A stretch of DNA of 32,000 nt, taken from assembly GCA_944389425.1 (NCBI GenBank), contig CALXMH010000005.1:7166-39165 (forward strand), read 5' to 3'. This DNA comes from an uncultured Clostridia bacterium. GTDB lineage: Bacteria; Bacillota; Clostridia; TANB77; CAG-508. A model generated the notes under the pieces. The model was not told where the DNA came from, did no database searches, and saw only the letters and a program-made list of their open reading frames with translations. Of this stretch, positions 3,713 to 19,465 are shown in pieces; position 1 is the stretch's first letter; the number at the start of each line of letters is the position of its first letter. The translations under genes were made by a program, and so were the position numbers.

Positions 3713-3741
3713 TGGACAAAATGTATATGATTGTATATAAT
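3713..3741 (+). promoter_or_regulatory. sigmaA-type promoter candidate: TGGACA, 17 nt spacer, TATAAT
   Basis: -35 TGGACA at 3713-3718 and -10 TATAAT at 3736-3741. The same hexamers and the same 17-nt spacing recur in copy 2 (8494..8522) although the spacer sequence differs. Confidence 0.45.
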
Positions 3742-3815
3742 ATATTTGTATAATGATAAGTTTAGAGAAGAGGGATTTACTATATGAATGGAAACGCTGA
3801 AAGCTGCATAGTTGT

Positions 3816-3834
3816 ACACACACACACACACACA
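3816..3834. repeat. Dinucleotide microsatellite A(CA)9
   Basis: Direct read: GTACACACACACACACACACAGG. The paralogous copy has (CA)8. Confidence 0.95.
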
Positions 3835-3884
3835 GGTAATTTATTAGAAAAAATAAACAGGAGAAATATATAGATTATATAAGG

Positions 3885-3925
3885 CATATGAACTTAGCTT
3901 GGTAGCTAGGTTTATGTGTCTTTTT
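3885..3925 (+). terminator. Intrinsic terminator inside element copy 1
   Basis: CATATGAACTTAGCT / AGCTAGGTTTATGTG form a 15-bp stem (including G-U pairs) with loop TGGT, followed by TCTTTTT. It also serves as the only terminator downstream of the GH94 gene. Confidence 0.65.
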
Positions 3926-3969
3926 GTGTTGAACTACGTGTGATTTTGTGAGTGGTTTTAAATATAGCC

Positions 3970-4156
3970 GCCGAGATAGGGCGTGGATTAAAATTTATTG
4001 CTCTCCTCGGCACGCCTGCGTGGTCTACAAACTCTAATAGAACATCAAACGAGCCTCTCGAAAGAACGCGCCCTCATTTAATGTTAATAAGAGTTTGTAC
4101 GACCACTCCGGCTACATTCGTCGCTCCATAAATTTTAATCCACGCCCTATCTCGGC
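3970..4156. repeat. Long GC-enriched inverted repeat / hairpin (variable module of element copy 1)
   Basis: Perfect 29-bp arms: 3970-3998 GCCGAGATAGGGCGTGGATTAAAATTTAT and its reverse complement at 4128-4156. An inner second stem pairs TGGTCTACAAACTCT with AGAGTTTGTACGACCA with one bulge. Much more GC-rich than the surroundings. Confidence 0.9.
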
Positions 4157-4296
4157 TCCTCTACAAAATAAAATTATTCATTATTAATTATTCACTATTC
4201 ATTAAATTTACAAAGTATCCGTATAGGGTTAGGAGTTTTTGAGGATAATATGATAAGATAGAAATATAAAGACAAAACGAAAGAGGTATGAGATAC

Positions 4297-5385
4297 ATGT
4301 TACAGAGAAAAAATGGAATAACATTAATAGCTTTAATAATAACAATAATAGTACTGTTAATATTAGCGGGAGTAGCGTTAGCTACTTTGACAGGTCAAGG
4401 CAATATAATAGGAAATGCAGAAAATGCAGTTGATAAGTATAATGAAGATGTAAAAAAAGAAGGATATATTTTAAATGAAATTGATAAATATTTAAATGAA
4501 TTACCAAAAGTATATCTTATTAATGAAGAGGCTGAAATCATAAATAAGGGAGATAGTATTAATGTTTCTTCTTATTTTAGAATTGAAGGTAGTGGAAATA
4601 TAACTGCTAAATATATTAATTTAAATGATAATAGTGAAATAATAGATACTTCTATGTTAGAAATGGGAACTTATACAATAAGATGTATAGCTACTAAAAA
4701 TTCAATTCATACTAGTTATGCAGATAAAGTTATAAATGTAGCAATTCCACTTGCAGATGTAGTGGAATTAGGAGATTATGTTGAATATGATGCAGGTGAT
4801 AAAGTTGTTACAATTACAACATCTGAAAGCGGATTATATTCACCAGACCAAACTTTTAACATTGCTGATTATAAAAATGGCTGGCAAGTACTACAAAATC
4901 AAGATAATATAATAAATTTAATATCTGCTGATTCTGTGAGTGACTTAATGATTTATAGTTTATCTGGTTGGCAAAATTATATAAATACTATAAATAAATT
5001 ATCAGCAGGATATGTAAATGAAGATTATGCTACACAAGGGAAAAGTATAGGAAATGCACTTGGGACTTTTGAAGAAGATATTAATTATATGAAGCAAGCT
5101 GGTGTAAATAATATTGGAAAGTTTTATTATTTAGCTTCAAACTATTATGTTCCAGATGGTGATGGATACTATTACTATTATATTAGGATTATAGAAGAAG
5201 ATGGAGAAAATAGATACTATACAGCTGGAAATACTGCAAGCTTGAATAATTTACCATATTCATCATGGAAAGATAGATCTTGGATTGTAACAAATGGTGT
5301 TAGACCAGTAATTACTTTAAAAGAAGGAATAAGAACAATCGGAGGAAATGGAGAGAAAGATACTCCGTGGATTTTAATTAAATAA
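4297..5385 (+). CDS. Prepilin-type (class III signal peptide-like) N-terminal domain protein with a large variable C-terminal domain
   Basis: N-terminus is MLQRKNG/ITLIALIITIIVLLILAGVALATL: a short basic leader ending in Gly, then a hydrophobic helix as in type IV pilins/pseudopilins, but with Ala instead of Glu at +5. The ATG at 4297 is about 10 nt from SD AAGAGG; the ORF-track ATG at 4288 is too close to it. TAA stop. Confidence 0.7.
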   Translation: MLQRKNGITLIALIITIIVLLILAGVALATLTGQGNIIGNAENAVDKYNEDVKKEGYILNEIDKYLNELPKVYLINEEAEIINKGDSINVSSYFRIEGSGNITAKYINLNDNSEIIDTSMLEMGTYTIRCIATKNSIHTSYADKVINVAIPLADVVELGDYVEYDAGDKVVTITTSESGLYSPDQTFNIADYKNGWQVLQNQDNIINLISADSVSDLMIYSLSGWQNYINTINKLSAGYVNEDYATQGKSIGNALGTFEEDINYMKQAGVNNIGKFYYLASNYYVPDGDGYYYYYIRIIEEDGENRYYTAGNTASLNNLPYSSWKDRSWIVTNGVRPVITLKEGIRTIGGNGEKDTPWILIK

Positions 5386-5663: not shown

Positions 5664-7961
5664 ATGCAGGTTATTAAAAGAGATGGAAGAGTAGCAGATT
5701 TTAATTTGGAGAGAATTATTAAAGCTATTACACTTGCTATGTCGCAAACACCAGGTGGAATAGATATTGATTTGGCAAATAAAGTTGCAAGTCAAGTTGA
5801 AAAGAGCTTGGAAGGCAAGATGCAAGCTAGTGTTTATGAAATTCAGGATTTAGTAGAGAAAAAGCTTATGGCATCTTCTAGAAAAGATGTTGCACAAAGT
5901 TATATTACCTATAGATATAATAGAGATGTTGCAAGAAAGTCTAAAACAAAAGAGGTCTTCTTAGATATTATAGGTGCTAAGGCAAATGATATTACAAGAG
6001 AAAATGCAAATATGAATGCAGATACACCTGCCGGAATGATGATGAAATTTGCAAGTGAGACTACAAAACCTTTTGTTGACGATTTTCTTTTATCACAAGA
6101 AGCAAGACAAGCTATAAAAGATGGCTTTATACATGTTCATGATAAAGATTATTATCCAACTAAGAGCTTAACATGTTTGCAACATCCATTAGATAAAATA
6201 TTAGAAAATGGATTTAAAGCAGGTCATGGGTCTTCAAGACCAGCTAAAAGAATTGAAACCGCAAGTATTTTAGGATGCATTTCTATGGAAACAGTACAAA
6301 ACGAAATGCATGGAGGACAAGCTATACCGGCTTTTGATTTTTATCTAGCACCATATGTTAGAAAAACATATATTGAAGAAGTAAAGAAAATAGAACAATT
6401 ACTAGATAAAGATTTATCTAAATTGTATGATGCTAAAATAAACGATTATATCAAAAAAGATTTAAAAGGCTTAAAAGATGAACAAAGGGATATGCAAGCG
6501 GCTATAAATTCAACAGTTGATAGAGTACATCAATCAATGGAAGCATTTATTCATAATATGAATACAATACATTCAAGAGGTGGAAATCAAGTTGTATTTA
6601 GTTCAATAAATTATGGAACAGATACATCAGCAGAAGGTAGATGTATTATAAGAGAGATATTACTTTCAACAGAAAGAGGAGTAGGAAATAACGAAACGCC
6701 AATATTCCCAATTCAAATTTGGAAGAAAAAACGTGGAGTTAATTATTTACCAGAAGATAAAAATTACGACTTATATAAATTGTCTTGCAAAGTTGCAGCA
6801 AAAAGATTTTTCCCAAATTATATAAATCTAGATGCAACATTTAATAGACATCCAAAATGGGATGAGAAAGACCCAAAAAGATATATTTATGAATGTGCAA
6901 CAATGGGATGTAGAACAAGAGTATTTAAAGATAGACATGGAGAAGATACATCAGTAGGAAGAGGAAATTTATCTTTTACAACAATGAATTTACCAGGATT
7001 GGCAATAGAAGCTGCATTAGAGGCACAAGAAAAAACAGGTGTAAAATTCGAACTAGGTAGAGGCTCAGAAACTAATATGACAGCAACTTACAAAAAGACT
7101 GTTAAGAAGATTTTTATGAATAAACTAGAAGAATACGCAGGAATAGTGGCAAGACAATTGTATGATAGATATAAATTTCAATGTACAGCATTAGCAAAAC
7201 AATTTCCATTATTAATGTCTGGTTTATGGGAAGATAGCGAAAAGTTAAAACCAAATGATGAAGTAGAACCAGTAATAAAACATGGAACACTTGGAGTTGG
7301 ATTTATTGGACTTGCAGAGGCATTAACAGTGCTTACAGGAAAACATCATGGAGAATCAGAAGAGTCTCAAAAATTAGGATTAGAAATAATAGGAGAGTTA
7401 CACGAATTAGTAGATGGTTTTGCTGAAAGATATGATCTTAATTATTCAGTTTTAGCTACACCAGCAGAAGGACTTTCAGGAAGGTTTACTAAAATAGATA
7501 AAAGAAAGTATGGAATTATTTTAGGAGTAACAGATAGGGAGTATTATACAAATAGTAATCATGTTCCTGTATGGTATAAATGCACCGCAGAGCAAAAAGC
7601 AAGAATAGAAGCACCATACCATGCTTTAACAGAAGGGGGACATATTTTCTACATAGAGTTAGATGGAGATGCAACACATAATCCAGATACAATAGAAGCA
7701 GTTGTTGATTTAATGGATAAATATAACATGGGCTATGGAAGTGTAAATCATACAAGAAGCAGATGTATGTCATGTGGATTTGAAAATGCAGATGCTAATT
7801 TAACAAAGTGTCCAGTTTGTGGCAGTGAAGATATAGATACAATTCAAAGAATTACAGGATATTTAGTAGGTACTACTTCTCGTTGGAATAGTGCAAAATT
7901 ATCTGAACTTAAAGATAGAGTTACACATATTGGTGGTAATGATGAAATAAAAGGAGCATAA
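5664..7961 (+). CDS. nrdD: Anaerobic ribonucleoside-triphosphate reductase (class III RNR)
   Basis: N-terminal ATP-cone (VIKRDGRVADFNLERI), C-terminal Zn ribbon CMSCG...CPVCG, and glycyl-radical motif RITGYLVG. SD GGGGG upstream. Followed by the activase gene. Confidence 0.95.
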   Translation: MQVIKRDGRVADFNLERIIKAITLAMSQTPGGIDIDLANKVASQVEKSLEGKMQASVYEIQDLVEKKLMASSRKDVAQSYITYRYNRDVARKSKTKEVFLDIIGAKANDITRENANMNADTPAGMMMKFASETTKPFVDDFLLSQEARQAIKDGFIHVHDKDYYPTKSLTCLQHPLDKILENGFKAGHGSSRPAKRIETASILGCISMETVQNEMHGGQAIPAFDFYLAPYVRKTYIEEVKKIEQLLDKDLSKLYDAKINDYIKKDLKGLKDEQRDMQAAINSTVDRVHQSMEAFIHNMNTIHSRGGNQVVFSSINYGTDTSAEGRCIIREILLSTERGVGNNETPIFPIQIWKKKRGVNYLPEDKNYDLYKLSCKVAAKRFFPNYINLDATFNRHPKWDEKDPKRYIYECATMGCRTRVFKDRHGEDTSVGRGNLSFTTMNLPGLAIEAALEAQEKTGVKFELGRGSETNMTATYKKTVKKIFMNKLEEYAGIVARQLYDRYKFQCTALAKQFPLLMSGLWEDSEKLKPNDEVEPVIKHGTLGVGFIGLAEALTVLTGKHHGESEESQKLGLEIIGELHELVDGFAERYDLNYSVLATPAEGLSGRFTKIDKRKYGIILGVTDREYYTNSNHVPVWYKCTAEQKARIEAPYHALTEGGHIFYIELDGDATHNPDTIEAVVDLMDKYNMGYGSVNHTRSRCMSCGFENADANLTKCPVCGSEDIDTIQRITGYLVGTTSRWNSAKLSELKDRVTHIGGNDEIKGA

Positions 7962-8478: not shown

Positions 8479-8493
8479 ATTTTGGAAAAAGTA

Positions 8494-8522
8494 TGGACAA
8501 GAGGATTTGTTTTGTATATAAT
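8494..8522 (+). promoter_or_regulatory. sigmaA-type promoter candidate: TGGACA, 17 nt, TATAAT (copy 2)
   Basis: -35 at 8494-8499 and -10 at 8517-8522. Hexamers and spacing are conserved with copy 1. Confidence 0.45.
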
Positions 8523-8592
8523 GTTTGAAGGAGATAGAAAAGAAACGAGGTTGAATGCAAATGAGGATAAACGCTGCAAGCCGCATGGTTGT

Positions 8593-8609
8593 ACACACAC
8601 ACACACACA
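8593..8609. repeat. Dinucleotide microsatellite A(CA)8
   Basis: Direct read. One CA unit shorter than copy 1. Confidence 0.95.
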
Positions 8610-8658
8610 GGTAGTTTGTTAGAGAAGTTAAATAGAAGGAATATATAGATTTATTAGA

Positions 8659-8705
8659 CATATGAACTTAGTTATTGTTGGATAGCTAGGTTTATGTGTC
8701 TTTTT
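8659..8705 (+). terminator. Intrinsic terminator inside element copy 2
   Basis: Same stem arms as copy 1 (CATATGAACTTAGTT / AGCTAGGTTTATGTG) with a larger 10-nt loop, then TCTTTTT. It is the only terminator downstream of nrdG. Confidence 0.65.
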
Positions 8706-8745
8706 GTTTTGCTTGTGAATATGTGTGGCGGTTTTAAAGGTAGCC

Positions 8746-8855
8746 GCCCTTAGAGTTCATATATATTATTTCTTGCCTCACATGGCTTCGATAGTGGGAG
8801 CGTACGACGTATAACTTCCTCGGACTTCAAAATAATATATATGAACTCTAAGGGC
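8746..8855. repeat. Inverted repeat / hairpin (variable module of element copy 2)
   Basis: Perfect 26-bp arms: 8746-8771 GCCCTTAGAGTTCATATATATTATTT and its reverse complement at 8830-8855. The 58-nt interior is GC-enriched. Confidence 0.9.
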
Positions 8856-9170
8856 TACTCTACTACTTAAAATTATTCACTATTAATTATTCATTAATTT
8901 GAATAAGTATCCGTATAGGGTTAGTAGTTTTTGGAGATAATATGATAAGATAATAAAAAACAAATGAAAGAGGGCAAGAAAAAGTGAAAGAAAAGAAATT
9001 AATGCTATGAGCGGCAATGAATACAGATGCAAAAAATCCGCCCAAAATTGATGAAAGCTGGAAGAAAAGACAAAACTTCCAGCTTTTGTCATATAAAATG
9101 CATAACAAAAATGTGATGTGGCATGTAAAGCTCGAAAAGTATAGAATCAAGTAGAGTTCTTGAATAGAAC

Positions 9171-9199
9171 TTGAAAAAGATGGAAAAGCATGATATAAT
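9171..9199 (+). promoter_or_regulatory. Strong sigmaA-type promoter candidate with extended -10: TTGAAA, 17 nt, TGaTATAAT
   Basis: -35 at 9171-9176, TG at 9191-9192, -10 at 9194-9199. About 90 nt upstream of ORF 9292. Confidence 0.55.
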
Positions 9200-9291
9200 T
9201 TTATACATAGTAGCTATATAAAAAGCCTTGGAAAATTTTTGAGGGCTGCAAGTGAATTGCTGCTTTGGGTGAATGACAGGAGGAATTTAAA

Positions 9292-10559: not shown

Positions 10560-10587
10560 AAAGGTGTAATTGTATACACCTTTTTTA
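10559..10587. terminator. Bidirectional intrinsic terminator between convergent rsmA and the HD-GYP gene
   Basis: AAAAGGTGTA / TACACCTTTT stem flanked by an A-run and a T-run. Confidence 0.7.
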
Positions 10588-11527
10588 CATCCAATCATCA
10601 ATTTTAATTTTTCTTATTTTTTGAATTTCTGATATTAATTTTTCTATATGCTCTTTTCTAACTATATAAGCATTTTTATATTCTTCAATTATTTGCTTAT
10701 AATTTTCAAGTGTTTCACCAGGTTGAAGAGTATATTCTATAAGTTCTTTAAAATCTTCTTTATCACGAGATTTTGTTGCGCTATGGTAGCCATCTATATA
10801 CTCATCAAGTTTTTCTAATCTTTTTATTTGGTTTTCTATGTGCTTAATGTAGCCTTCTACACAAGATATTTCATAATTTATATCATCTTCCACAACTTCA
10901 AATAAGGAGTGAACAATTTGTGGATTTATTTGACTGTATTTAGGATTTTTTGCATTTGTTCTACCTGTTTTATAAGCAGGGATTGTTTTGTCTGCAATTA
11001 TTTTTAATGTATCTGATATGTCTATGTGAGTTTTATATTGTCTTTTGCTAACAATTGCATCATATTCATCTGCAACTCTTATTATTTGTCCTTCTATTGG
11101 TAAATCTTCTTTTACTACTCCATTTGGATATCCGAGAACCATCTAATCCTTCATGGTGATATAGGGGACCATTTGCATATGGCCTTAATTTTAAGTCGTC
11201 CATGCACATTTTATAGCCAATTGTTGTATGTGTTTTCATTTTTTCATATTCTTCATCTGTAAGCTTACCATTTTTTTGTAATATTTCTGGTGGAATAAAC
11301 ATTTTGCCAATATCGTGTAAATATGCACACATTGTACAATAAATTGTAAATTTTTTATTTAATCTTAAATTTTTACAAATTTTACTAGTCATATTTGCCA
11401 CGTTTTCAGAGTGCTTTAATGTAAATACATCCAAATGAGAAAGCATATTTAACTGGTATCGCATGCTTTCATTTAGATTGTAAGATTTTAAATTGGTTTT
11501 ATCATAAAAATCAAATTCTTTATACAT
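10585..11527 (-). pseudogene. HD-GYP domain phosphodiesterase, split into two ORFs by a +1 frame break exactly at an in-frame CGG (11134..11132)
   Basis: The upstream ORF carries HD motifs (YLHDIGK, HHEGLDGS). The downstream ORF begins ..GYPNGVVKEDLPIEGQIIRVADEYDAIVSKRQYK. Skipping one C joins them into HHEGLDGSGYPNG. The likely start is the ATG at 11527 (MYKEF), which has GGAG 6 nt upstream. Confidence 0.8.
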
Positions 11528-11640
11528 AATCGTCTCCATTCATATTATGGATATATTTTATAACTTTTATTAAAGTTTTGTCAACATTTAGTTAGGAGTC
11601 TTTTTTTAATTTGCTATTTTAATTATTTTCTTATAAATAC

Positions 11641-12182: not shown

Positions 12183-15100
12183 GTGTATTTAAAGAGATTA
12201 GAGTTACATGGATTTAAGTCATTTGCAGATAAGACTACTTTGGAGTTTATGCCAGGTATTACTGTTGTTATTGGACCTAATGGGTCTGGTAAGAGCAATA
12301 TTTCAGATAGTATTAGATGGGTTTTGGGCGAGCAAAGTATGAAATCTTTAAGAGGAGCTAAGTCTGAGGATATTATTTTTGCTGGTACTCAAAACAGAAA
12401 GTCTTTGGGGTTTGCAGAGGCTTCTATTGTTATTGATAATAGTGATAATAAATTACCAATTGAATATAATGAAGTTATTGTTACAAGAAGGATTTATAGA
12501 AGTGGTGAGTCTGGGTATTTTATAAATAAATCACCATGTAGGTTAAAAGATGTTCAAGAACTTTTTATGGATACAGGTATTGGAAAAGATGGATATTCTA
12601 TTATCGGACAAGGAAAAATTGATGAAATTTTAAGTAATAAATCAGAGGAAAGAAGAAATATTTTTGAAGAAGCTGCGGGTATTGTTAAATATAGAGTTAG
12701 AAAACAAGAATCGGAAAGAAAACTAGAACAAACCAAAATAAATTTACTTAGAATAACAGATATTTTATCTGAAATTGAATCTACGATTGCTCCACTAAAA
12801 GCACAATCAGATAAAGCTAAAAAGTTTTTAGATTTAAGGGAAGAATTAAAAGATATAGAAATAGGGCTTTTTTTGCATAATATAGATACGTACAAATCAA
12901 AAATTACTGAAATTATTGAAGATATAGATACAATATCTTCACAAACATCTATGGAAGAAACAAAAATGGATGAGAAAAAAAGCCAAAAAGAAAACTTAAA
13001 ATTAGAACTTGAAAATATAATTCAAGAGATTGAGAATATGCAAAATAGCGGTTTTGAAATTTCTAATAAAATCGAAAAAATAAATTCAGATATTAATGTT
13101 ACAAAACAAAAAACTGAAAATAATATAGAAACAATAAAAAGATACGAAAATGAAATTATAGAGCTAAAAGAAAAAATAAAAGACTTAGAAGAAGAAAAAA
13201 ATCAGAAAATTAATAAAAAGAATAATTTATTTGCAGATAAAGAAAGATTTGAAAAAGAATTAGAAGCAAAAGAAACGGAACTAGAAGAATTAACTTCAAA
13301 ACTATCTAGTAAAGAACTTGAAATTGAAGAAAAAAAGAAAAAACTAAATGATAATATAGATACAAAATACAATTTAGGTTCACAAATAAATACACAAGAT
13401 GTTAATTTTGAAAACTTAGAAAAGCGTGAAAAAACTTTAAAAGAAGAGCAAAGAGTTTGCATTTCTGAACTAGATTCTGAAAGGCTTGTTAAAGAAGAAA
13501 TTTCAAAAACTTTTATTCAAATAGAAGCAAATAGAGATAAGATTATAAAAGAATTAGAAGAATTTAATATACAAAAACAAGAAAGTACTAATAAAATTAA
13601 AGAATACGACAATTTAATAAATAAAACTGGAATGGAACTTAGAATTAAAGAATCTAGACATAAATTTTTAATAGAAACAGAAAAAGAAAAAGAAGGATAC
13701 AGTAAAACTATAAAAGCAATTCTTAATGCTTGTGAAAAAGATAGTAATTTAAAACAAGGAATGCATGATGTTTTAGCAAACATAATTTCAGTTCCAAAAG
13801 AGTATCAAACAGCAATAGAAATGTCGCTAGGACAAGCAATGCAAAATATAGTTACAGATACAGAAAACACAGCAAAAAAGCTTGTAGAATATTTAAGAAC
13901 AAATAATTTAGGAAGAGCATCTTTTCTGCCAATTACTTCTGTAAAAGGTAAAAAACTAGAAAAAATAAATTCAAAAAATGTTCCAGGAGTAATTGGAATT
14001 GCCGCAGATTTAGTAAAAAACGAGAAAACATATGACCAAATTATATTAAATTTACTAGGAAGAACAGTAATTGTAGAGAACATGGATTCAGCAATTCTGC
14101 TTGCTAAGCAAAATTCATATTCTTTTAGAATTGTTACATTAAAAGGAGATGTAATTAATCCATCAGGAGCTATAACAGGTGGATCTGTAATAGCTAAAAC
14201 AGTAAATATTTTAGGACGCAAAAAAGAAATTGAAGAATTAGAACAAGAACTTAAAACTATGAACGAAAAGATTGAAAAAATAGAAAAAGAAAAACAAGAA
14301 TATGCAGCAAGCATAGAAAATATTTTAGCCAAATCTGAGGAAATGGAAAAAGCAAAACAAGAGGCAGAAATTGTATATGCAACAGAAAAACAAAAACTTA
14401 CATCTGTTGAAACAAATGTTGAAAAACTAGAAAATAGATTAGCAAAAATTAAAGATGAAATTTCAAGTATAGAACTAGAAAAAGAAAATAATAGAGCTCA
14501 AAAAACGAATTTAGAGGAACAAATAATTAGTTTAGAACAAGAAATTACAGAGCTAAATTCAATAATAGAAGCTTTTGCAGAACAAAATAAAGATAATCAA
14601 AAATATATAGATGACTTAAATTTTGATATAACAAATTTAAAAATTTCTGTATCATCTTTTAGTGAAAGTGAAGCATCTATTGATGAAATTGTAGAAAGAG
14701 TAAATCAAGACATAAATAGTTCTACTATGTCTATACAAAATAAAGAAAAAATATGTGAAGAACTAAAACAAGAAAATAATGCAAATAATGAAAAAATTGA
14801 TGATTTACAAAAAGAAATAGAAAAATCAAAACAAGAAGTAAGCAGTAATTTAGTTAAAATAGAAGAATTAAAAAACACAAGAATTACAAAAAATGAGATT
14901 ATACAAAAATTAGAAGAAGAAATAAATGATAATTTAAAATTATTAGATGACCTAAAAGATCAAATTAATAAAATAGAAATAAAAAAATCAAAACTAGAAG
15001 TAGAATTAGAACAAGTAATTAATAAGATGTGGGAAGAATATGAAGTAACACCAAATACTGCTGAGAGCTATAAAAAACCAGAAAATGTACAAGAAGTACA

Positions 15101-17989: not shown

Positions 17990-19465
17990 ATGAAAACAAA
18001 AAAAATTCTACCAATACTAGTAGTAACGATTTTGGTTAGTATAGTATTTGCAGGAATTTCTTATTGTGCAACAGGACTTGTGACAGGTAATACGGTGAGA
18101 ATTAGAAAATCACCTTCTACAGAAGCTGAAATTATTACAAATGTTTATAAAGACGACAATATAACAGTTTTAGAAAAAGAAGGGGACTGGTATAAGGTTG
18201 AATACGAAGGAAACGAAGGATACATTTTTGGAGAATATATTGATGTTGATGACTCAGAACTAAATAGTGAAGAGAATATCAATAATAGCGAAGATGAAAA
18301 TAATACAAATGAAAATGAAAACACAGAAGGAAGTGGAGAAGTTTCTAGCTCTACAAGTGTTGGAGAAATAAGACTTCAAGAAGTTTATACAGTTAAAAAT
18401 AATACTAAATTATATATACTACCACTTATTTCATGTCCTGTATTAGAAGAAATTAGTGCAGGAAGTGATATTACAGCTATTCAAGTGGTAAATAACTGGG
18501 TTTATGTCCAAGGGGAAAATGAAGTAGGGTGGATTTTAAAATCTGCCATAGAAGAATCAGATACAACAAATAATGAAGAAGAACCAAAGGAAGAACCAGT
18601 AGAAGAAACACCAACTAAAAAAGTTGGATATGTAAATGTTGAAATGGCAAATGTTAGAGAAGATGCAACTGTTGAATCTGAACATGTTGTTACTGTAACT
18701 TTAAATATGGAACTTACCATTTTAGGAGAAAAAAATGGGTGGTATAATGTAGATACAAATGGTACTACTGGATATATTAATAAAAAATTAGTTTCAGATG
18801 AGCCAGTTACGATAACAACATCTAGAAGTATAACAACATCTAGAAGTTTGACTTATGGAAGAAAAAGTGTTCAAAATGATGTAGTTGTTGCTACTGCAAA
18901 TGCCACAACAGAGCTTGTTGAAACAAAACAAGAGCAAGAAAGAAAACTTGCTGAAAAAAGAGAAGCAGAGGCAAAAGCAAAAGCCGAGGCAGCTAAAAAA
19001 GCCACTGCTAAAAAAGCCACTGCTAAAAAAGCCACTGCTAAAAAAGTGAGTGTTGCAAAGGACTCAACAGTTAAGCTAAATGGTAGTGGTGCAACAGGTT
19101 CAGAAATAGTAGCATATGCTAAACAGTTTTTAGGTGGAAAGTATAAAAGTGGAGGAAGCAGTCCTAGTACAGGATTTGACTGTTCAGGATTTACTTCGTA
19201 TGTATATTCACATTTTGGGTATAGTATAAGTAGAACATCAGGAGGGCAAGCTCAAAATGGTAAAAATGTCTCGAAAAGTCAGTTAAAACCTGGTGATATT
19301 ATAGCTTTTTATAACCAAGGAAAAACAAAGATAGGACACGTAGGAATATATATAGGAAATAATCAATTTATACACTCGGAAAACTCTAGAACTGGTGTTG
19401 TAATAACTTCTTTAAATAGTTCTTATTATGGAGATAGATTTGTATGTGCAAGAAGAATTATTTAA
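17990..19465 (+). CDS. Secreted cell-wall hydrolase: signal peptide, SH3b repeats, low-complexity linker, C-terminal NlpC/P60 domain
   Basis: SH3b-like segments (TGNTVRIRKSPS..GDWYKVEYEGNEGYIFGEYI and two more). The NlpC/P60 core has catalytic Cys in FDCSGFTSYVY and His in IGHVGIYIG. Confidence 0.9.
   Translation: MKTKKILPILVVTILVSIVFAGISYCATGLVTGNTVRIRKSPSTEAEIITNVYKDDNITVLEKEGDWYKVEYEGNEGYIFGEYIDVDDSELNSEENINNSEDENNTNENENTEGSGEVSSSTSVGEIRLQEVYTVKNNTKLYILPLISCPVLEEISAGSDITAIQVVNNWVYVQGENEVGWILKSAIEESDTTNNEEEPKEEPVEETPTKKVGYVNVEMANVREDATVESEHVVTVTLNMELTILGEKNGWYNVDTNGTTGYINKKLVSDEPVTITTSRSITTSRSLTYGRKSVQNDVVVATANATTELVETKQEQERKLAEKREAEAKAKAEAAKKATAKKATAKKATAKKVSVAKDSTVKLNGSGATGSEIVAYAKQFLGGKYKSGGSSPSTGFDCSGFTSYVYSHFGYSISRTSGGQAQNGKNVSKSQLKPGDIIAFYNQGKTKIGHVGIYIGNNQFIHSENSRTGVVITSLNSSYYGDRFVCARRII
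18812..18847 (+). repeat. Perfect 18-bp tandem duplication (ATAACAACATCTAGAAGT x2), encoding ITTSRS x2
   Basis: Direct read inside the P60 linker. Confidence 0.9.
18992..19045 (+). repeat. 15-bp tandem repeat (GCTAAAAAAGCCACT, about 3.6 copies), encoding (AKKAT)n
   Basis: Direct read inside the P60 linker. Confidence 0.9.

Follow-up and report, generated by a model that had tools for sequence, protein, structure and literature searches.

The subject of this report is a pair of long intergenic elements of the same build, found at positions 3713-4287 (copy 1) and 8494-8975 (copy 2) of a 32,000-nucleotide stretch of DNA from an uncultured Clostridia bacterium (GenBank assembly GCA_944389425.1, contig CALXMH010000005.1, forward-strand positions 7,166 to 39,165), here called the window. 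The element is probably a repeat-dependent leader-peptide attenuator that controls, from the 5' side, the individual genes of a pilin-like family. It is best read as an independently evolved variant of such attenuators, and is neither a new class of RNA nor a mobile element. All features of the two copies lie on the forward (+) strand.

The two copies align over their full length except for a hairpin in the middle, with a mean column identity of 79%. The window contains exactly two occurrences each of an 18-mer (GTATCCGTATAGGGTTAG) and a 30-mer (AAACGCTGNAAGCNGCATNGTTGTACACAC), where shuffled sequences would be expected to hold 0.01 and 0.00. An earlier note, made from the sequence of the window, had described two intergenic elements on one scaffold, and this description holds, as do its promoters, its common terminator, its two unrelated long hairpins and its 8-codon stub behind copy 2. 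Each copy opens with a promoter, here called P1, of the form TGGACA-17-TATAAT. In copy 1 it lies at 3713-3741, 4 nucleotides (nt) past the stop codon of a GH94 gene, is preceded by TG and matches the consensus at 11 of 12 positions; in copy 2 a consensus scan places it at 8494-8522, 16 nt past the stop codon of nrdG. There follow a Shine-Dalgarno (SD) sequence, a small open reading frame (ORF) that contains a run of CA dinucleotides, and an intrinsic terminator. Beyond the terminator come the long hairpin, an array of heptamers and a further conserved block, the 3' module, which together are called the distal layer below.

The copies were compared with others from related uncultured Clostridium genomes and metagenomes, gathered from contigs that encode members of the pilin-like family, to which the window and the sequence L002 were added. 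This gave 19 distinct leader copies (two each in the window, L008, L019, L020 and L021, three in L012, and one each in L002, L009, L010, L011, L013 and L027), and so does not bear out the possibility, raised in the earlier note, that only two copies exist as a recent local duplication. The one-genome-per-species scan with the 18-mer GTATCCGTATAGGGTTAG found one other organism, a metagenome-assembled genome (MAG) named 'uncultured Clostridium sp.' (L001, L002); the same scan of metagenome and viral collections gave only chance matches in unrelated sequence (L003-L007), and two further scans of viral collections with conserved words gave chance matches (L028-L030) or nothing. All 19 distinct copies lie upstream of a member of the pilin-like family or of a remnant of one, as expected from the suggestion in the earlier note that this is a conserved leader of that family. 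Because copies are found only 5' of family genes or their remnants, the element is the 5' region of a gene family and not a dispersed repeat.

The part that carries the argument is the leader ORF. P1, in the form T[AG]GACA-17-TATAAT, was scored in 18 copies and is seen in 16 of them; an SD sequence lies 4-12 nt 5' of an ATG in all copies examined, and the (CA)n tract is inside the leader ORF in every one of the 19. In copy 1 the ORF (3784-3873, with the SD GAGGG at 3770-3774) encodes the 29-residue peptide MNGNAESCIVVHTHTHTGNLLEKINRRNI; its two halves are in frame because the tract, which consists of His-Thr codons at 3817-3834 and is the proposed variable switch, has nine units, the orthologous tract in L008 being (CA)8. 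In copy 2 the tract is (CA)8 (8594-8609), and the ORF accordingly ends early (8555-8614, MQMRINAASRMVVHTHTHR, with ATG 8561 as an alternative start), while the distal part, GSLLEKLNRRNI (8610-8648), is in the +1 frame relative to the ATG and has a coding signature in this frame only. The earlier note had listed the (CA)n, an SD-like AGGAG/AAGGA and ATATATAGAT as separate modules, but one small ORF accounts for all three, as its body and its end (..R R N I stop); what it missed is that the repeat lies inside an ORF of translated type, and that the number of repeats sets the position of the stop codon relative to the terminator. Some copies, none of them in the window, have a further module upstream of P1, GGGGACGTTTC(C)AAATGGGGTAAAATACCCCA(C/T)TGGGGACACATC, with a small hairpin between GGGGAC direct repeats (L001 1886-1945; L009 61-107; L013 9621-9677), and in L001 P1 is joined straight to the distal layer, the small ORF being missing.

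Both halves of the ORF carry a coding signature. For the half beyond the repeat, the following 36 nt were compared in 12 copies, and in all of them a single frame is open, with 1-3 stops in the remaining two. Pairwise differences in this tail are distributed over the three codon positions as 108/94/220, and the ratio of synonymous to non-synonymous codon differences is 137/191, against 64/297 and 42/306 in the other frames; its stop codon is TAG in some copies and TAA in others. Judged by this pattern of substitution, the tail past the repeat is evolving as a coding sequence. Its consensus is G-x-LLEKI-(N/K)-RRNI-stop, and the long form of the peptide reads ...VHTHT(HT)G-LLEKI-RRNI. A HMMER scan of predicted proteins among 1.84 billion representatives yielded two full-length leader peptides, P0121 (MKKVIAKSLAAVHTHTHTGNLLNKINRRNI) and P0122, and a search with the 48-residue P0122 as query matched only itself.

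The length of the repeat differs between copies. Counted in metagenome assemblies, some of only 2-5x coverage, n is 8 in 15 of the 19 copies, 9 in window copy 1 and L027, and 6 in L021:19673. At one and the same locus n is 8 in L021 and 7 in L022 and L023, which come from three different samples and have identical flanks, and copy 1 of the window has n = 9 where its 95%-identical orthologue in L008 has n = 8. The tract is free of synonymous interruptions, though His and Thr codons would permit many, except in L002, where it reads (CA)8TA, the sole interrupted tract among the 19 copies, and the ORF is thereby locked in frame.

When the ORF is recomputed for n = 6 to 10 in each copy, two distinct geometries appear. 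With n a multiple of 3, the ORF has 26-31 codons for amino acids (24-29 when modelled with n = 6) and its stop codon lies 6-14 nt (median 8) ahead of the first paired base of the terminator. With any other n, the stop codon lies 32-48 nt ahead of the terminator stem (27 nt in L009). In copy 1 the terminator (3881-3922, with its T-run to 3927; 19-base-pair stem) begins 9 nt past the leader stop, and in copy 2 (8656-8701, with its T-run to 8706; 20-base-pair stem) it begins 8 nt past the distal stop and 42 nt past the proximal one. All 17 aligned copies retain the terminator, which has a stem of -10 to -24 kcal/mol and then T5-7, the T-run being degenerate in L013. The numerous G-U pairs in it, and single-side exchanges among A-U, G-U and G-C, fit only an RNA of the + strand. 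Between the promoter and the T-run the alignment of the copies reveals no other conserved RNA structure.

From these features the following mechanism is proposed. P1, a strong promoter of the sigma-70 type, would give a transcript that opens with the SD and the small ORF bearing its pure (CA)n, and the strong intrinsic terminator would sit 3' of that ORF. As each unit is 2 nt long, slipped-strand gain or loss of CA would place the sequence past the tract in a new reading frame. With n = 6 or 9 a ribosome would continue through the tail, G-x-LLEKI-x-RRNI, and halt 6-14 nt before the stem; with n = 7 or 8 it would halt 27-48 nt before it. A ribosome at the distal stop would hinder closing of the base of the terminator hairpin, and RNA polymerase would enter the pilin-like gene (ON, or high expression), while early release of the ribosome would let the terminator fold (OFF, or low). 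The polarity is proposed because the anatomy is like that of the pil1 and pil3 leaders of Streptococcus gallolyticus, compared below: n = 6 or 9 would be ON, and n = 7 or 8 OFF or low, so that in the window copy 1 would be ON and copy 2 OFF. The sequences themselves show the anatomy, the coding signature of the ORF halves, the differences in n, the dependence of the stop position on the frame and the conservation of the terminator; the control of read-through by translation, this polarity and a high rate of switching are what we infer. Family members would switch randomly, each on its own, and since most copies have n = 8, few of them would be ON in any one cell line. Two copies bear on whether the gene can be reached from P1. 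At L019:6768 an intact gene of 852 codons begins about 90 nt past the T-run, with neither a 3' module nor any promoter-like sequence between, and must therefore be transcribed through the terminator; and L008 copy 1 has lost the TGATAAGAT (TAAGAT) box of the 3' module while its gene is still intact.

Several points weigh against this mechanism. Analogy underlies all of the functional claims for these uncultured organisms. The distal stop is placed ahead of the stem and not inside it, and a ribosome that terminates there would cover no more than about 0-4 nt at the base of the stem; at L012:9597, where the distal stop is 14 nt away, it would perhaps cover none. In Firmicutes such as B. subtilis, transcription is reported to run uncoupled from translation, which makes anti-termination by a ribosome less certain. 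The presence of n = 8 in 15 of 19 copies is more uniform than free drift would lead one to expect, and 8 may itself be a selected, functional number. The conservation of amino acids in the tail is not needed if the ribosome has only to pass through it. The 3' module, present in most copies, could be an independent promoter that bypasses the attenuator. Finally, the repeat counts depend on the metagenome assemblies mentioned above, some of which are thinly covered. Stalling at RRNI-stop, or recoding on (CA)8, would explain both the predominance of n = 8 and the conserved tail.

The conserved tail, and the position of the terminator straight after a stop codon, which is the usual end of a gene, also suit a different reading, which we think unlikely. 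Here the leader would be a gene for a small protein in its own right, with a separate promoter and terminator, in which (CA)n picks between peptides of 14-23 and 26-31 residues; the pilin-like gene would be transcribed from a promoter in the 3' module, and the linkage between the two would reflect a shared function and not regulation in cis. The fixed register of the 3' module and its TGnTAAGAT box, which is like an extended -10, are in its favour, as is the fusion of P1 to the distal layer without the small ORF in L001. It is difficult to reconcile with L019:6768, whose gene has no 3' module in front of it, or with L008 copy 1, whose gene is intact without the TAAGAT box. Moreover, the consensus promoter scan finds no recognisable -35 sequence at 16-18 nt from that box, and in 15 of 19 copies the halves of the ORF are out of frame, so that the long peptide would rarely be made.

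The same predominance of n = 8, in copies whose +1-frame tail nonetheless retains its coding signature, invites the suggestion that (CA)8 is the functional state, and that programmed -2/+1 ribosomal frameshifting or transcriptional slippage takes place on the CA tract, the efficiency of recoding and not slippage of the DNA then setting the read-through. We regard this as quite improbable. The tRNAs for His and Thr could, by inference, re-pair perfectly after a 2-nt shift on CACACA; a stop codon in the zero frame (TGA, TAG or TAA) follows within two codons of the tract in 17 of 18 copies, L009 being the exception, and might act as a pause site; and GGAG lies two nt ahead of the tract in about half of the copies. 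However, off-frame stops are common in AT-rich sequence and the adjacent stop may be due to chance, no stimulatory structure is found 3' of the tract, and the DNA itself varies (n = 6, 7 and 9, even at one locus), which slipped-strand mispairing predicts and recoding does not need. An equally slender chance is given to a broader scheme, in which a fraction of ribosomes or RNA polymerases would shift by 2 nt on (CA)8, translate a conserved tail of arrest type (..KI-x-RRNI-stop) and park at the foot of the terminator. The efficiency of recoding would then set the expression of each family member, with DNA slippage as a second and slower layer, and the long hairpin would be both an RNA processing site and a recombination joint at which leaders are shuffled between paralogues.

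The distal layer is best guessed, with low confidence, to be a second and optional part of the 5' untranslated region (UTR), acting in RNA processing or stability, possibly as a site for RNase III. Its main component is the long hairpin. In copy 1 this is 187 nt long, with arms (3963-3998 and 4128-4163) that are 92% complementary; in copy 2 it is 110 nt long, with arms (8746-8771 and 8830-8855) that are 100% complementary; and the two have no sequence relation to each other. In the folds of both window copies the stem extends outward, pairing GUGARUR..GGUUUUAA..GUAGCC with GGCUAC..UUAAAAUUAUUCAY and including several G-U pairs. The extended hairpin of copy 1 thus covers 3948-4181 around a type-1 top (3963-4163), with a predicted fold of -104 kcal/mol (z = -9.3) and a predicted basal helix of GUGAGUGGUUUUA (3948-3960) with UAAAAUUAUUCAU (4169-4181). 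That of copy 2 covers 8715-8880 around a type-2 top (8746-8855), with a predicted fold of -68.6 kcal/mol (z = -5.7) and a predicted base of GUGAAUA (8715-8721) with UAUUCAC (8874-8880). In these minimum-free-energy folds the two conserved blocks that the earlier note placed on either side of the long hairpin (its modules 5 and 7), together with the first heptamer, are the two strands of the hairpin base. In the alignment, pairing of the basal helix is not kept at its sole variable position (GGCT[A/C]C against G[T/G]AGCC), and the base therefore rests on the energy predictions and the G-U pairs.

The arms themselves show covariation. The type-2 hairpin of about 110 nt occurs in window copy 2, L008, L002, L010, three times in L012, in L019, L021 and L027, and at the contig ends of L025 and L026; the type-1 hairpin of about 187 nt occurs in window copy 1, L008 and L020. 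For type 2, both partners have changed in eight pairs, the share of paired cells is 94% and falls to 40-53% if the partners are slid, and the covariation score was reached by none of 500 shuffles. For type 1, both partners have changed in 15 pairs among the three sequences, in the comparison of window copy 1 with L020. The outer arms swap one Watson-Crick pair for another with almost no G-U intermediates, and mismatched mosaic arms are seen in L008 copy 2, L012:6591 and L012:13149; the pairing that is kept in the arms may therefore be that of the RNA or that of the DNA. At the orthologous locus upstream of nrdD the window and L008 carry a type-1 top, L025 and L026 carry a type-2 top, and L009 has none; recombination between paralogous leaders evidently exchanges the tops. 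The copies without a hairpin (L011, L021:9733 and L019:6768) each keep one orphan half of the base, and are therefore deletions, such as long palindromes would undergo. Both L025 (1-60) and L026 (1-50) start within the type-2 palindrome, which indicates that assemblies tend to break at the hairpin; those built from short reads may therefore hold fewer copies of the element than the genomes do.

Next to the hairpin is the heptamer array, TATTCAY/TATTAAT, of 2-6 units. In copy 1 it has four units (TATTCAT TATTAAT TATTCAC TATTCAT, 4175-4202), where the L008 orthologue has two, and in copy 2 three (8874-8894), where the L008 orthologue has five. The two ATTATTCAYT repeats 14 base pairs apart that had been reported are indeed there, but as part of this array. 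The 3' module (4215-4262 in copy 1; 8907-8952 in copy 2) consists of a TAWCC-N6-GGTTA palindrome, a T-run and ATATGATAAGAT (TGnTAAGAT), in a register that is fixed across copies. It has no RNA fold that is conserved across copies, and is possibly an operator with a weak second promoter. A sigma-F-type reading of it (GTATA-15-GGnnAnAHTR) fits copy 2 but neither copy 1 nor the more distant copies, and was rejected.

A hairpin with a conserved base and two unrelated tops, a top that is of type 1, of type 2 or missing, depending on the strain, at the orthologous locus upstream of nrdD, and entire cassettes that are present or absent between related genomes might also be seen as the work of a mobile mosaic repeat, resembling BOX elements or miniature inverted-repeat transposable elements (MITEs), or of a free structured RNA gene with an exchangeable stem, that came to lie near pilin-like genes by chance. 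This is very unlikely, since in about 300 kb of related DNA, sampled from incomplete genomes, every copy lies 5' of a pilin-like family gene and neither the leader nor either type of hairpin is found outside that context, the conserved-word scans of genome, metagenome and viral collections gave one other MAG and chance matches, target-site duplications are not seen, the arms vary yet stay complementary (the opposite of the terminal repeats bound by a transposase), and the hairpin-less copies, with their orphan half-base, are deletions and not empty sites. The BOX-like repeat proposed in the earlier note is thus not supported. Its structured non-coding RNA with a swappable stem is partly borne out, for the distal layer only, given the compensatory changes and the variation of the top between strains at an orthologous locus; the hairpin, however, belongs to a 5' UTR and not to a free RNA gene, and in the proximal part the terminator is the only structure that is conserved.

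Known RNA families were also searched. Rfam at gathering thresholds gives no match in the whole window, and permissive E-value scans of both copies give at best 19.6 and 22.7 bits against thresholds of 70, in agreement with the earlier remark that no named family could be recognised. A c-di-GMP riboswitch is known upstream of the Clostridioides gene pilA1; such a riboswitch, or any other, was rejected here for want of an aptamer-like conserved structure or an Rfam match. A retron msd-like hairpin, an integron attC site and a domain of a group II intron were likewise rejected, no matching consensus being seen, and no reverse-transcriptase domain is found in the scanned genes of the loci or in window ORFs up to 11,539.

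The gene behind copy 1 (4288-5385, with the SD GAAAGAGG at 4280-4287) encodes a protein of 365 residues with the N-terminus GITLIALIITIIVLLILAGV. Its ATG at 4288 is only 0-1 nt past GAGG, while the ATG at 4297 is normally spaced and gives MLQRKNG as in the orthologue P0001; the gene most likely starts at 4297. The protein has more than 2000 homologues, which have about 65 N-terminal residues in common (..KNGITLIALIITIIVLLILAGVALATLTGQGNIIGNAENAVGKYN..) and diverge in the remainder. The N-terminus resembles the signal and alpha-1 helix of a type IV pilin: the Pfam model N_methyl gives 18.6-19.9 bits, a little short of its cut-off of 21.2, and the top profile matches in the PDB are all type IV pilins, though weak (E = 0.004-0.7). 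No prepilin N-terminal model of NCBIfam matches at E <= 1; one family member has weak NCBIfam matches to GspG and to a prepilin-peptidase-dependent pilin. Position +5 is Ala and not Glu. In the absence of the +5 Glu and of an NCBIfam prepilin model, 'pilin-like' expresses a resemblance and not an established membership.

Copy 2 is followed only by the 8-codon stub VKEKKLML (GTG 8984 to TGA 9010), which is homologous to the MQEKKLK and MKEKKLR starts of other family members. At the same site L008 has a leader and then pilin-like coding sequence, out of frame with its ATG, and in L009, L025 and L026 only about 120 nt separate nrdG from the next gene. By these comparisons, copy 2 is a complete orphan leader that remains after deletion of its structural gene. 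Downstream of the stub, at 9058-9090, lies an orphan terminator-like hairpin (AGCTGGAAG..CTTCCAGC, then TTTTGT), which is probably the terminator of the deleted gene.

Some further observations concern the family and its surroundings. Whole cassettes of leader and gene are present or absent at syntenic sites (L010 compared with L021; window 8479-9291 compared with L009 4677-4794), and often begin right past the stop codon of a housekeeping gene, without a visible target-site duplication. A number of family genes are out of frame with their ATG, the break lying just before or soon after the GITLIAL codons (L001 around 2125-2190; L008 around 6160-6230; L012 around 13510-13590; L020 around 14390-14470); they may be pseudogenes, or a second, frame-dependent level of control. 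Genes for PDDEXK_2 proteins (Rpn or YhgA-like nucleases) stand amid the pilin-like genes (L012 8643-9494 and 13907-14770; L019 5843-6670), one of them directly 3' of a pilin-like gene that is cut off after its transmembrane helix, and might take part in the shuffling or deletion of cassettes. Elsewhere in the window, an HD-domain gene on the minus strand (10585-11539) is present as two overlapping ORFs that match Pfam HD_5 at 5-112 and 113-160, and is split likewise in L009, and a 15-nt tandem repeat, GCTAAAAAAGCCACT, of about four copies lies at 18977-19051 within the ORF 17990-19465.

To our knowledge, and in the literature found, repeat-dependent leader-peptide attenuation has been shown in one organism only, in two or three pilus operons. 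The present leaders suggest that uncultured gut-type Clostridia arrived at the same logic by an evolution of their own. If so, it would provide combinatorial and random variation of the cell surface by way of a large and fast-changing pilin-like family. The combination of a small ORF, a pure repeat and one frame that ends at a terminator gives a signature with which other genomes can be searched. It also has a consequence for annotation, in that regions labelled intergenic hold an ORF of translated type that gene callers miss or place in the wrong frame. The known model accounts neither for the conserved peptide tail nor for the exchangeable long hairpin.

The closest known system is that of S. 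gallolyticus, where experiment showed that pil1 and pil3 are controlled by GCAGA repeats in the ORF of a leader peptide together with a premature terminator (Danne et al., 2014; PMC3894217). There, expression is mostly low if the leader stops 39 nt (or at least 28 nt) upstream of the hairpin, and high if it stops immediately upstream of the hairpin, within it or beyond it, the ribosome blocking formation of the terminator; mutation of the start codon or the addition of stops abolishes the effect (PMC3894217). The order of parts is the same in both systems, namely a promoter, a ribosome-binding site, a short leader ORF with a repeat unit of a length not divisible by 3, a terminator and a gene for a surface appendage, and in both the number of repeats places the leader stop relative to the terminator. 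The distances are also comparable: the far stop is at 39 nt in pil1 and at 27-48 nt in the Clostridium leaders, and the near stop, 6-14 nt upstream of the stem here, corresponds to the 'immediately upstream' position that gives high expression there. In both, the short-peptide state is that of the majority, and more than one locus per genome uses the device. There are, however, clear differences. The two have no sequence similarity, and the repeat is (CA)6-9, or 12-18 nt, here, compared with (GCAGA)13-23 there. In the Clostridium leaders the long frame ends before the stem and not within or after it, and the tail of the long peptide is conserved in its amino acids. The proposed device is attached here to all members of a large family of paralogues in Clostridia, and the one in Streptococcus to two or three sortase-pilus operons; here it is followed past the terminator by an extra hairpin, a heptamer array and a 3' module.

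A second comparison concerns the distal layer. In the 5' UTR of hmw1A of Haemophilus influenzae, ten heptamer repeats make up a whole arm of a hairpin, and cleavage by RNase III has been shown (Rapun-Araiz et al., 2025; PMC12721329). In both systems the 5' UTR of an adhesin-type gene holds a very stable long hairpin and heptamers that vary in number, and the repeat joins the hairpin, in the present leaders by a predicted pairing of the first unit with GUGARUA. They differ in that only one heptamer unit is predicted to pair here, the arms being unique sequence, and in that the organisms are unrelated.

The classical his, thr and trp attenuators share with the present leaders a run of His and Thr codons in a leader peptide, followed by an intrinsic terminator. 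A His/Thr-sensing attenuator was nevertheless rejected, since the alignment contains no conserved alternative antiterminator, the downstream gene is not biosynthetic, and the codon run is a pure dinucleotide repeat without synonymous variation whose length varies. Finally, opa and pilC of Neisseria are contingency loci with repeats inside the structural gene. They resemble the Clostridium family in being multigene families of surface proteins with a separate repeat in every copy, most copies being in the OFF frame or, in Clostridium, in the frame proposed to be OFF. The difference is that in Clostridium the repeat belongs to a leader ORF upstream of the structural gene, and its effect would be on the termination of transcription and not on translation of that gene.

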